45,975 nt of DNA from Candidatus Eiseniibacteriota bacterium (GTDB taxonomy: Bacteria; Eisenbacteria; RBG-16-71-46; DASYSL01), in NCBI GenBank assembly GCA_031431875.1, contig JANPEF010000085.1:1-45975 (forward strand), given 5' to 3'. Within the stretch, counting starts at the first letter, position 1, and each line of letters opens with the position of its first letter. The position numbers and the translations under genes are program-made. Below, piece after piece: positions 13,266 to 16,688 of the stretch. The notes under the pieces are model-generated. The model was not told the DNA's origin, ran no database searches, and worked only from the letters and a program-made list of their open reading frames with translations.

Positions 13266-13302
13266 CGTCGATGTTGCGACGGTCGGCGTCGTTGTATCGA
13301 CG
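13266..13302. promoter_or_regulatory. Tandem palindromic sites, candidate enhancer (UAS) for a sigma54 activator
   Basis: CGTCG-N6-CGACG at 13266-13281 and 13287-13302, 21 bp apart, about 110-145 bp upstream of a -24/-12 promoter. Confidence 0.6.
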
Positions 13303-13409
13303 GTGGCGCCGGCCCGTGCGCGTCGCGGTCGGACGCGGCCAGCCCGGAAATCCAGGCGTTTGGCGGGGTTCACGCCGGGTCGGGTCCGACTGCGGCCCGG
13401 CCCCTCCGG

Positions 13410-13425
13410 CGGCATGGCGCTTGCT
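13410..13425 (+). promoter_or_regulatory. Sigma54 (-24/-12) promoter
   Basis: cGGCATggcgcTTGCT, GG-N10-GC spacing, 47 bp upstream of ATG 13472. Confidence 0.75.
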
Positions 13426-13471
13426 GTTCGACGGACACAGCCCCCGCTGGTCCGCCCCTGCGGAGAGCGCG

Positions 13472-13792
13472 ATGCACCTTCTCGCTCGATTCGTCATCGC
13501 GACGTCCGCCGTGTTCGCCCTGCTCGGATTCTGTTCCGCGCCCGCCCGGGCCCAGGCCATCCCGGCGTGGCTGCCGGGGCTCTCGATCAAGTTCATCGTG
13601 CGCACGATGGAGCTCGGAGACCTGCTGAATGAGGCGATCGCCGATCGTCTCCGTCGCCGTCCGCTGTTCTACCCGCAGCCTGTCCTGCCGCCGCCGCCGG
13701 TGATCCTTCCCGTGATCGATCCTGCGACCGAGCCGGCTCCCCTCCGCGCGACCGGGCCGCATCCGTCGCTGGAAGCGGTGTTCGTCCCGTGA
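13472..13792 (+). CDS. Small secreted protein 1 (signal peptide, helix, Pro-rich tail)
   Basis: GGAGAG RBS; signal ending PARAQA; PQPVLPPPPVILP; GTGA overlap with the next gene. Confidence 0.7.
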   Translation: MHLLARFVIATSAVFALLGFCSAPARAQAIPAWLPGLSIKFIVRTMELGDLLNEAIADRLRRRPLFYPQPVLPPPPVILPVIDPATEPAPLRATGPHPSLEAVFVP

Positions 13793-14247
13793 TCGCGCGC
13801 CTTCCGGCAGCGGCCGCGCTGCTCGCCGTGCTGGGGCTCCTCCTCGCGCCGCCGGCGTCCGCCGGTCCGCTGCGGAAGGCGTTGCGCCTGGCCGTGCGGT
13901 ACGCCACCCGCTGCGTCGAGGCCCGCCGGACGATCGAATCCGTGCGCGAGTGGAAGGACCGTTTGCGCGCTTCGATGCCCGCTCCCGTGCGCCCCCCGAA
14001 CTCCGCCCCCGGGGATCAAGCCGATGAACTTCCCCACCCTGCGACGCTTCCGTCCGTGCGCCCTCGCGCTCGGGTTGCTCGACGCTCTCGCCCAGCCCAT
14101 CCTCGTCACCACTCCGGTCCACGCCGCGACCGCACCGATCGTCACCGACGGGGGCGCGGTCAAGGCGTTGCGCGTCGCCTGGGGCCGGTTCGGCCCGATC
14201 ATCATCACGCTCGCCTGGGACATCGTGACGGACCTGTTCTCGGGTGA
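13789..14247 (+). CDS. Small secreted protein 2 (true end may be near 14027)
   Basis: Signal ending PPASA, cationic amphipathic helix GPLRKALRLAVRYATR, PAPVRPPNSAP; the ORF overlaps the next gene by 224 bp. Confidence 0.6.
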   Translation: MIARLPAAAALLAVLGLLLAPPASAGPLRKALRLAVRYATRCVEARRTIESVREWKDRLRASMPAPVRPPNSAPGDQADELPHPATLPSVRPRARVARRSRPAHPRHHSGPRRDRTDRHRRGRGQGVARRLGPVRPDHHHARLGHRDGPVLG

Positions 14248-14305
14248 TTCGCAGCCACCGCCGCCGGCCGACCCGCCGCTGCCGGATCCGGATTTCGCGC
14301 CCTGA
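14024..14305 (+). CDS. Small secreted protein 3
   Basis: GGGGA RBS; signal ending PVHA; helix ALRVAWGRFGPIIITLAWDIVTDLFSG; QPPPPADPPLPDP tail. Confidence 0.7.
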   Translation: MNFPTLRRFRPCALALGLLDALAQPILVTTPVHAATAPIVTDGGAVKALRVAWGRFGPIIITLAWDIVTDLFSGDSQPPPPADPPLPDPDFAP

Positions 14306-14349
14306 CCCCCGCCTGCGTCCCCTTCAATCGCCCCCGCGGGAGATCGACC

Positions 14350-14613
14350 ATGCTTCGTCCGTTTCGCCCGCTGCTGCTCGTGAGCACCCTGGTCCTCGCC
14401 GTTCCTGCGCTTGTTCCGGTCCGTGCCGTGGCCGCGGCGAACCAACCGCAGGCCGACCTGGGCATTCCCAGGCCGGTCATGCGGTACCTCAAGGCCAACT
14501 GGCAGATGATCTACATCGCGCTCGACGAGCTGATCGATGATCTCACCGGGTGCGACTGCCCGCCGACGCCGCCCCCCGCACCGAATCCGGCTCCGTCCCC
14601 TGGGGTGGGCTAG
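14350..14613 (+). CDS. Small secreted protein 4 (apparent paralog of protein 3)
   Basis: GGGAG RBS; signal ending AVA/AAA; helix VMRYLKANWQMIYIALDELIDDLTG; CDCPPTPPPAPNPAP tail. Confidence 0.72.
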   Translation: MLRPFRPLLLVSTLVLAVPALVPVRAVAAANQPQADLGIPRPVMRYLKANWQMIYIALDELIDDLTGCDCPPTPPPAPNPAPSPGVG

Positions 14614-16688
14614 GAGTTCGGCACGTCGAGCGACCAGTCGCCGCGCCGGTGGGCGTCGACAACCGCGTCGAGGTGGGGCAGGTAGGGGGCGGGCAGCTTG
14701 GGCAGGCGCGCCCGCGCCCGGTCTCGCGCGTCCTGGTCGGACGTCGCGTCGCGCGTGATTTCGCTCACGAACTCGAGGTAGCCCTCGAGTCGTGAGCGGG
14801 CGCGGTCCTCGAGATCGGGCATCAGGGCGATCGTCCGCGCGGCACGCTTCGTGTCGAAGCCGGCAGCCGACAGCGCCTTGAAGCACTCCCCCTGAAAGTA
14901 GTACGTCAGGCTCGAGCGATCGGCCACGGGCGCGGCCGAGCGGCCGGCGGGGGACCGTCGCAGGCGCGAGAGGCTGCGCTCGGCCTGGCTCAGGTTGAAG
15001 TCGCAACGGCGCAGCTGGTCGAGCACCCAGGCGCCCGTGGTCTCGACGTCGCGCTTGAGCCCGCGACCGCCGCCGTCCTCGCCGAAGGCGCGGCCCACAC
15101 CCTCGTCGTCGTCGCCGCCGTTGTCGTAGCCCGGATGCGGCTGCGCCACGCGGCCGCCGGTCGCCGGGCCTGTCGCCGTGCCGTCGCCCAGGCCGCCCGC
15201 CTGCTGGAGCAGGTTCTCGAGGTCGACGAGCGTGGCCGCGCGGCCCTGCGTGCGCAGGACGAGCGCGGTCAGCAGGTTGCGCAACTCGCGGATGTTGCCC
15301 GGAAACTCGTATTCCTCGAGGCGGCGGAGCACCGCGGTGGCCAGGCGGGCCGGGGGGGCGCCCAGGTCGTCGGCGAGCCGGTCGAGCACGTGCTCGACGA
15401 GAATCGGGATGTCGCCGCGACGCTCGCGCAGCGCCGGCAGGCGCAGCCCGAAGACGTTGAGGCGGTAGTACAGGTCCTCGCGAAAGCGCGCGCCCTTCAC
15501 CTCGGACAGCAGGTCGCGATTCGTGGCCGCAACGACCCGCACATCGACCTGGGTCGCCCGCTCGTCACCGACGCGGCGGAAGCGACCCTCCTGCAGGACG
15601 CGCAAGAGGCGCGTCTGCGCGCCCGAGGGCAGCTCGCCGATCTCGTCGAGGAACAGCGTGCCGCCGTTGGCCAGCTCGAAGGCGCCACGGCGATCGCGGG
15701 TCGCGCCGGTGAAGGCGCCGCGCACGTGGCCGAAGAGCTCGCTCTCGATCAGCTCGCGCGGGATCGCGCCGCAATCCACCGTCTCGAACGGTCGGTCAGC
15801 GCGCGGCGAGAGCGCATGGATGGCGCGGGCCGCCAGCTCCTTGCCCGTGCCGGTCTCGCCGAGCACGAGCACCGGGCAGCGCGCCGGCGCGACCATCGCG
15901 ATCTCGCGGAAGGCGCGCTCGAACGAGGGACTGTTGCCGATGATCTCCTGCAGGATGGGAAAACGTCGCCGCAGCTCGACCAGGGAGAGCCGGCCCAGGT
16001 GGGCGGAGGCTCCCGCATCGGGCTCGAGCGCACCGGGCGCCTCGGTCGGTTCGACCGGGCCGTCGCCGGCCGCGCCGGGGTGCTGCGTCACCTGGTGATA
16101 GATGAGGTTCTCGAGGGCCTGCGTGCACAGTTGGGCGGCGGTGGCGAGCAGCTCGAGTTCGTCGTCGCCGTAGTTCTCGCCGAGCAGGCGCGGGCCCCAC
16201 ACCGCGAGGCCGTAGAACCCGCCGCGGCCGACCAGCGGGACGATCGCCTGCGCATCGAGCCGGGCCAGCCATTCGCCGTTGCGCCGGACGAAGTCGCGGC
16301 AGCGATCGCTCTCGGGCCCGGGCTTGAGCGAGACGCCGCTGCGGGCCTCGGCGCTCTCGAGGAACACGAGGTCCTCGGGGGCGAGCACGGGGCGGATGTC
16401 CTGCACGATCCCTTCCTGGTAGCCGTAGTGGCGCCACAGGCGCAGGCGGCCACGATCAGCCTCCCAGCGCAGCCCCGCGGCGGAGGCCGCCCCGACACCC
16501 GCCACACACGACAGCAAGAACTGCCCGACGGCCTGTCCGGGGTCGCCGGCGGAGAGCAGGCCGCGGGCGATTTCGAGGAGGGCGGTCAGTTCGAAGTTCT
16601 GGCGTTCGAGCGCTTCGCGGGTATGGCGTCCGTCGGCCCCGCGGCGGAGCGGACGGTCGGGCATGGACGCGTCTGGGGGACGGCTCAT
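14610..16688 (-). CDS. Sigma54-dependent enhancer-binding protein (GAF, AAA+, atypical C-terminal domain)
   Basis: GETGTGKE Walker [42 protein letters not shown]-terminal GAF-like region; start ATG 16688 or 16664. Confidence 0.93.

Follow-up and report, generated by a model that had tools for sequence, protein, structure and literature searches.

Which activator switches on a set of small genes that lies next to a sigma-54 activator, and what would a cell do with several exported peptides made at once? These questions are raised by positions 13266 to 16688 of a 45,975-nucleotide stretch of DNA from Candidatus Eiseniibacteriota (contig JANPEF010000085.1; the whole stretch is called the window below), where tandem palindromes and a sigma-54 promoter precede four open reading frames (ORFs; together, the cassette) and a GAF-AAA+ activator gene runs towards them from the other side. 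We find that the cassette is a real, narrow and unnamed peptide family within a classical sigma-54 regulon. The reading that we favour, though tentatively, is that the four signal-peptide genes are one arm of a cell-envelope regulon and encode exported membrane-binding helices, probably switched on by an activator encoded elsewhere.

The cassette and its promoter

The features of the locus are as follows (SD, Shine-Dalgarno motif; aa, amino acids).

13266..13302, no strand: tandem palindromes CGTCG-N6-CGACG, starting at 13266 and 13287 with a 21-bp period; predicted upstream activator sequence
13410..13426, plus strand: sigma-54 -24/-12 promoter, GG at 13411-12 and GC at 13423-24; predicted transcript start ~13436
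13440..13465, plus strand: leader with GCCCCCG at 13440-46, a near-copy at 13454-60 and the SD GGAG at 13462-65
13472..13792, plus strand: ORF1, 106 aa; predicted signal (~27 aa), helix, Pro-rich tail; mature net charge 0
13789..14247, plus strand: ORF2, 152 aa, frameshifted; predicted signal and cationic amphipathic helix (+7); last 74 codons over ORF3
14005..14011, plus strand: GCCCCCG directly 5' of the ORF3 ribosome-binding site
14024..14305, plus strand: ORF3, 93 aa; predicted signal, basic-then-acidic helix, poly-Pro tail; mature net charge -4
14330..14336, plus strand: GCCCCCG directly 5' of the ORF4 ribosome-binding site
14350..14613, plus strand: ORF4, 87 aa; predicted signal, basic-then-acidic amphipathic helix, G-C-x-C, poly-Pro tail; mature net charge -3
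14610..16688, minus strand: GAF-AAA+ sigma-54 activator, 692 aa, convergent with the cassette
14613-15053, minus strand: C-terminal domain of the activator, 147 aa, residues 546-692, all-helical, of no recognised family
12264..13205, plus strand: arginase-family gene, the conserved upstream neighbour, which adjoins the activator where the cassette is missing

An earlier note on this locus had pointed to two phased palindromes and a GG-N10-GC promoter, and both are there as described; the palindrome has no further copy in the window, and the genome encodes rpoN. In this genome of 3.75 Mb (G000; G and L numbers are our labels for compared genomes and loci) exact palindrome pairs number 3, as against 0.004 expected, and shuffling the intergenic region produced two same-arm palindromes in 9 of 5000 trials and a promoter match in 8 of 5000. 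The -24/-12 consensus is the one given in the available part of PMC6615313, and its -24 GG and -12 GC are conserved among cassette loci. No sigma-70 promoter or terminator was found within 13000-17000. In the G003/G004 clade, a further conserved element is more plausibly the arginase gene's terminator. Further upstream, 1.5 kb from the cassette, the window carries a TldD/PmbA peptidase pair (9046-12001), one member of which has a twin-arginine (TAT) signal and is likely exported.

The earlier note had proposed looking for the small ORFs and the promoter elements beside homologues of the activator, and for purifying selection on the ORFs. In the g1/g3 clade, every one of the 28 loci with DNA downstream carries cassette ORFs between the arginase and activator genes (the window, 5 genomes and 22 metagenome contigs, all of one Ca. 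Eisenbacteria clade; the contig of G005 ends at the activator). Among cassette loci with enough upstream DNA, 18 of 19 have the palindrome pair with at most 2 mismatches, as has G001, and its end lies 42-122 bp from the promoter. The stop of ORF4 overlaps that of the convergent activator by 4 nt, as had been noted, but this is seen in only 3 of the 28 loci, the others having gaps of 1-272 nt.

With regard to selection, the ratio of non-synonymous to synonymous substitution rates (dN/dS) against G002 is 0.19 for ORF1, 0.26 for ORF3 and 0.15 for ORF4, which speaks for purifying selection, and for ORF2 it is 0.64 over codons 1-64 and 1.18 over its extension; these are crude NG86 values from small counts, and L030:1441 and L109:691 are misfiled as ORF1-type both here and in the GCCCCCG counts below. 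Against more distant loci, ORF1, ORF3 and ORF4 give 0.37-0.58; the range for ORF2 is 0.64-0.73, and the pooled pairs of the sister clade give 0.29-0.43 for its ORFs.

ORF2 needs separate comment. It has no stop ahead of ORF3, which it overlaps by 224 nt in a different frame, and this run-on frame is common to G000 and G002. Since ORF2 of L109 and L088 ends at the start of ORF3, a frameshifting deletion in the G000/G002 lineage is indicated. In the overlap, dN/dS is 0.28 in the ORF3 frame as compared to 1.18 in the ORF2 extension; judged by these ratios, selection acts on the ORF3 frame there and not on the extension. The description of four short co-oriented ORFs thus stands for ORF1, ORF3 and ORF4, but not for ORF2, with its 152 codons running over ORF3. 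The same is true of the claim that each has a signal, a helix and a Pro-rich segment: the three others do (their signals being predictions), but the first 39 mature residues of ORF2 contain 2 Pro only. The translational coupling proposed for ORF1 and ORF2 agrees with their 4-nt overlap, and across cassettes an overlap of 1 or 4 nt is found at 38 of 64 gene junctions.

Across 73 cassette ORFs, A-x-A is present in 71 and a lipobox in none, figures that are to be read with the fact that signal peptides were called by a hydrophobicity/A-x-A rule and ORF starts picked by a signal-like score. Poly-Pro tails occur in 69 of the 73. Helices of the ORF3 and ORF4 types are basic in their first half and acidic in their second, and ORF3 is likely a paralog of ORF4 (33% identity, E~2e-4). 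The ORF2 type has a mean moment of 0.73 and a net charge of +6.3. CxC or CC is found in 11 of 14 ORF4-type rows, and the sister clade lacks this Cys motif. When profiles were compared, ORF4 was linked strongly only to the sister-clade type (95%). A four-chain complex prediction of the mature peptides scored 0.01, the controls not being folded.

That the peptides belong to no recognised family, as the earlier note had it, was borne out: there is no match over the cut-off in Pfam or NCBIfam, and the ORF4 profile has 0 matches among PDB sequences. The same profile matches 6 of 61 genomes, all g1/g3, and 13 of 1.84 billion representatives, of which 12 are family members and the thirteenth, a 3636-aa repeat protein, was judged spurious; the ORF1 profile has 17 matches among 8000 candidates. 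In the ESM Atlas, ORF4 gave only sub-0.9 matches to unnamed Acidobacteriota clusters and a sister-clade peptide none. Three RNA runs contained 7-10% of the words, and their contigs were uninformative for the cassette. Among the papers listed, none was on this system by title or start of abstract, subscription journals not being covered.

In the G003/G004 branch the cassette consists of an ORF1 type, an ORF4-like type, a further helix/Pro type and a peptide of ~33 aa, and the cationic ORF2 type was not called. The ~33-aa peptide, hydrophobic and signal-less, ends the cassette there (L028, L030, L092-L108; 18 loci, dN/dS 0.29) and presumably resembles small membrane toxins or regulators. The first cassette gene of L100 (3928-4482), a locus without the palindrome pair, is an ORF1-type helix fused to a second helix/Pro unit. 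For the counts in general, L110 (a weak match), L059 and, in the pair count, the truncated L093 were left out or misfiled, and alignments A5 and A13 contain one mis-cut row each.

A palindrome shared with other promoters

Is the locus self-contained, as had been claimed? It is not, because the same palindrome marks other promoters in the genome. A palindrome matrix trained on other loci finds 7 top sites in G000, far above the rest, and 4 of the 7 have a strong sigma-54 promoter downstream, as compared to a background of 1.5%. The four sites with promoters belong to the cassette, a barrel-like gene (contig C45), a TPR-like gene (C162) and an RNA (C120). The C45 target has a signal peptide and matches OMP_b-brl weakly (E=0.0019, below cut-off), and that on C162 is a 112-aa ORF with a weak TPR-like match; the palindrome sites of both recur in relatives. 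By its recurrence, then, the pair defines a predicted regulon of at least four promoters in G000.

We discarded the idea that the palindrome is a LexA box, since the palindrome closer to lexA is a different one; the 3 strong pairs without a sigma-54 promoter are left unexplained. One strong pair is contained in a small ORF with a signal peptide that closely precedes a TPR-GAF-AAA+ activator gene (G000:C28:17340-20850), an arrangement conserved in G001, G002 and G004. Others (G000:C76:33409, C113:714, G002:C88 and G003:C70) adjoin HNH-like, ribbon-helix-helix-like or toxin-antitoxin-like genes and are mostly without a sigma-54 promoter.

Which activator reads the palindrome

The protein of the neighbouring gene has the core of a sigma-54 activator: Sigma54_activat (PF00158) matches with E=3.9e-69 and the GAFTGA motif is intact at residue 324 (15719-15702). 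The GAF part of the earlier description is less firm, the GAF_2 match being weak (E=0.011, below cut-off; best PDB match E=0.22), and GAF_2/GAF_3 are matched on several homologues. The protein falls below the curated NCBIfam cut-off for NifA, NorR, NtrC, RtcR, PspF and LuxO (all 25 rows among the matches listed). Its C-terminal domain matches no helix-turn-helix (HTH) family in Pfam, and no Fis-type HTH was detected in it. A model of this domain has a predicted local distance difference test score (pLDDT) of 92.9, and fold searches with it gave no clear match (best Z 4.4; TetR-like and NtrC1 rows Z 3.4-4.3). The full-length model, made without an alignment, is unusable (pLDDT 36).

The activator is more widespread than the peptides. 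Its profile matches 24 of 61 genomes, including all 9 others of the family, 14 of the 48 genomes of the sister family f3 and none of the 3 in f2. When the C-terminal domains of 24 activators are placed in a tree, the 11 rows with a cassette group as a single clade (96/100). In G006, G008 and G009 the activator is kept without a cassette, and the arginase gene or its remnant abuts it. Several other G000 activators have reciprocal best matches in both G011 and G059, the adjacent one does not; the regular expression used recovered 13 of ~18 activators in G000, 11 of 18 in G011 and 12 of 20 in G059.

The palindrome follows a different distribution. In 10 of 14 f3 genomes the highest score of the cassette matrix falls at -133 to -138 relative to the promoter of the lexA-side RNA described below, with p<0.05 in 9 (150 shuffles each; kin are not independent), whereas at activator-adjacent promoters of f3 this is so in 1 of 8 only. 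The activator profile finds nothing in seven of these f3 genomes, five of which still show the palindrome at p<0.05; the five include G011, which is 100% complete, and G048 and G059 (96%). As the palindrome thus stands at the RNA promoter in near-complete genomes without an activator match, another activator probably reads it. In our estimate the reader is probably an order-wide factor; that it is the adjacent activator seems doubtful, and that both read it less likely still.

The competing view, which we consider unlikely but the best surviving alternative, is that the adjacent activator binds the palindrome pair and drives the cassette together with the other promoters, the peptides being a clade-specific output that is swapped for a hairpin RNA or basic micro-peptides beside its orthologues. 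Convergent adjacency in 28 of 28 loci would fit this well. So would the situation in f3, where a convergent sigma-54 promoter accompanies the activator orthologue in 8 of 10 loci, 7 of these 8 promoters have a palindrome of their own (TCCGCA-N5-TGCGGA, 6 of them at -122 to -127), the presumed recognition helix differs, and the outputs are a hairpin RNA (6 loci) or Lys-rich peptides of 41-46 aa (2 loci). Two activators can, moreover, share one site, as described for LuxO and SypG in the accessible part of bioRxiv 2022.04.27.489697. This view is opposed by the palindromes of G011, G048 and G059 just mentioned, and by G006, G008 and G009, where the presumed recognition helix is near-identical and yet there is neither a strong palindrome pair nor a cassette; DNA binding by the C-terminal domain is, moreover, putative (Z<=4.4).

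The f3 loci hold two observations of their own. The long-hairpin RNA 3' of the activator orthologue (L035, L036, L040, L041, L042) carries a conserved apical stem of the GNRA type, follows a sigma-54 promoter and TCCGCA-N5-TGCGGA, and gave no Rfam match in the 3 of these loci that were scanned. In L044 and L045 the orthologue stands beside sigma-54-driven, Lys/Arg-rich peptides of 41-46 aa with terminators, in two copies in L045.

The RNA beside lexA

One of the four promoters in G000 drives no protein-coding gene:

G000:C120:8768-8888 (L122): structured RNA of ~120 nt, divergent from lexA, behind a sigma-54 promoter

A model built from four sequences matches in 21 of 61 genomes, and the core is also present in 4 further genomes (G006, G008, G009 and G029), not in G010. 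In 19 of 20 cases a -24/-12 site lies just upstream, and in the twentieth it falls inside the match. The RNA folds into a long predicted hairpin, 13 of its 29 predicted pairs show a compensatory change, and its apical ATCGGGGGCC, a G-rich loop, is invariant in 16 aligned sequences. The RNA is conserved across the order. Rfam gave no match over it at 4 + 7 loci (E<=5), and it did not align as one family with the hairpin RNA of the sister family (one row of that alignment being mis-cut). An assignment as 6S RNA was rejected, the best 6S candidate of the genome lying elsewhere (G000:C140:26607-26790, L118; 31 bits, below the Rfam cut-off). Between lexA and dinB there is an inactive-looking IS200-like transposase gene (G000:C120:6834-7377) with GGCCCCCG before its start.

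The complement of the RNA loop, GCCCCCG, recurs in the leaders of the regulon. It is present in 19 of 20 cassette leaders and in all three protein-coding regulon leaders of G000, against a background of 26 of 1485 crude SD-led genes and 3 of 58 sigma-54-like promoters. Within 40 nt upstream of starts it occurs in 19 of 21 ORF1-type (two rows misfiled), 3 of 4 ORF3-type and 8 of 9 ORF4-type genes, while for types that are generally coupled to the preceding gene, or lie a short gap behind it, the figures are 1/7, 0/15, 0/16 and 0/18. At 29 starts GCCCCCG or a near-copy lies 0-6 nt before an SD-like motif. It is possible, if tentative, that the RNA tunes translation of the cassette, up or down, by pairing of its loop with GCCCCCG. 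RNA pairing beside a ribosome-binding site more typically represses. That the RNA instead unmasks the SD got no support from folding, where blocking GCCCCCG moved SD accessibility from 0.22 to 0.28 (6 of 29 raised). A csrA-like gene, recognised by eye at G000:C153:76745, also has GCCCCCG just before its SD and is a possible target of the RNA.

A possible role in the cell envelope

How might these pieces be connected? An enhancer-binding protein would very likely bind the palindromes and open the sigma-54 promoters, and this protein would probably be the order-wide factor instead of the adjacent GAF activator. Sec would then, with only slightly less assurance, export the ORF products, and signal peptidase I would free chains of 40-80 residues into the periplasm. 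On the next step we are evenly divided: the helices might bind the membrane face, alone or together, with the poly-Pro tails as spacers, in a protective or remodelling role. Finally, and here we can only be tentative, the G-rich loop of the co-induced RNA could pair with the GCCCCCG copies next to the ribosome-binding sites, and the RNA could so tune translation.

With an outer membrane presumably present, Sec would deliver the peptides to the producer's own periplasm. Fixed single-copy inheritance, the frequent coupling of the genes and co-regulation with a barrel-like gene would all fit an envelope role. Sigma-54 has been linked to the bacterial exterior, according to the available part of Francke et al. 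(PMC3162934). Taken as a whole, the picture would be an undescribed sigma-54 feed-forward circuit, in which one activator co-induces exported, poly-Pro-tailed membrane helices and an order-wide G-loop RNA, and the RNA pairs with a C-rich element at each independently initiated ribosome-binding site and sets the dose of possibly self-harming peptides; in this complete form we think it rather unlikely.

Several observations weigh against the reading as we have put it. On the side of the activator, no single other one could be named, several order-wide candidates remain, and a second conserved activator site in the cassette promoter was not found; most sigma-54 activators adjoin their targets, as stated in the accessible part of PMC6615313, and the convergent promoters beside f3 orthologues point the same way. 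Among the palindromes, a strong sigma-54 promoter is missing at 3 of the 7 highest-scoring pairs of G000. As to the RNA, its link to the leaders was a post hoc observation, the genome-wide enrichment of GCCCCCG ahead of genes is only 2.3-fold (though this is the highest of 21 words of the same composition), the TPR-like leader of G003 lacks it, in the barrel-gene leaders it lies far from the SD, and there is the small effect in the folding given above. Lastly, the profile links between peptide-type pairs other than ORF4 and its sister-clade type are weak.

The earlier note had proposed a signal-induced secreted peptide system, such as a bacteriocin, structural subunits or signalling peptides. 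What stands of this is a conserved sigma-54 operon of small proteins with predicted signal peptides, under selection; the bacteriocin and pheromone readings, weighed on the same sequences, fit worse than an envelope-accessory role. A multi-peptide, Sec-exported, membrane-active bacteriocin or self-lysis system, which we regard as improbable, would account for four co-transcribed helical peptides of which at least two are paralogous, for the cationic and amphipathic ORF2 and for the fast divergence of the peptides (32-61% identity). It sits badly with the neutral or negative charge of mature ORF1, ORF3 and ORF4, with a single-copy cassette at a fixed site, and with the sole cationic peptide being the least constrained one, having a run-on tail in G000, G002, L089 and L029 and no counterpart called in the G003/G004 clade. 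Furthermore, in line with the earlier note, the scan of the six flanking genes shows no transporter or immunity-like gene, no search for them having been made in the rest of the genome.

A little less probable again are coat or fibre subunits that polymerise by helix bundling and Cys cross-links. Translational coupling, charge-polarised helices, the CxC/CC motif of ORF4-type rows and the poly-Pro tails would suit such subunits, but the sister clade lacks the Cys motif and has a changed gene content, and the six flanking genes include no dedicated secretion or assembly gene. A signalling loop of the RRNPP-like kind, in which a processed peptide returns to bind the GAF domain, would suit the receptor-beside-peptide layout and could draw on the likely exported TldD/PmbA pair, but is very improbable, since the GAF domain is 84-99% identical across 7 cassette loci where the peptides are 32-61% identical, so that the two partners have not diversified together, 3 genomes keep the activator but no peptides, and the alignments contain no short conserved terminal peptide.

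Comparison with known systems

Sigma-54 activators beside small envelope proteins are familiar from ZraP-ZraSR and the Psp response. The cassette differs from these in that its proteins match nothing in Pfam or NCBIfam, its peptides are varied and number four to five, and a sensor kinase is absent. Sigma-54-driven regulatory RNAs are likewise familiar, CbrB-CrcZ being one such system. The RNA beside lexA resembles Qrr1 of the LuxO/SypG system in being a structured RNA behind a sigma-54 promoter with upstream sites, as far as the accessible part of bioRxiv 2022.04.27.489697 describes it. Unlike Qrr1 and CrcZ, it has no Rfam match, forms a long hairpin with an invariant G-rich apical loop complementary to co-regulated leaders, and is fixed beside lexA.

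Aureocin A70, among the multi-peptide class II bacteriocins, consists of four small, strongly cationic helical peptides from one operon with AurT and AurI (PMC10941976, the part available). The cassette shares with it the four small helical peptides in one operon. Aureocin A70 is leaderless, whereas the cassette peptides have predicted signal peptides and poly-Pro tails and are mostly neutral or acidic (0, +7, -4, -3), and nothing like AurT or AurI is encoded by the six flanking genes scanned.

The control logic, by comparison, is classical, but the outputs are not: helix/poly-Pro micro-proteins without a match in Pfam, NCBIfam or PDB and an RNA without one in Rfam. The shared palindrome and the complementarity of loop and leaders make up a small circuit that could be tested in a laboratory host, without culturing Eisenbacteria. 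If the order-wide factor is real, an activator that adjoins a sigma-54 promoter need not be the one that reads this promoter's enhancer. The adjacent activator differs from enhancer-binding proteins of the NifA/NorR/FhlA type in staying below every NCBIfam cut-off listed, in its 147-aa helical C-terminal domain without a Pfam HTH match and in that the palindrome may belong to another activator, while in its putative GAF-like N-terminus, its AAA+ core with GAFTGA, and the -24/-12 promoter with upstream tandem palindromes the locus is like those of that GAF-AAA+ type.

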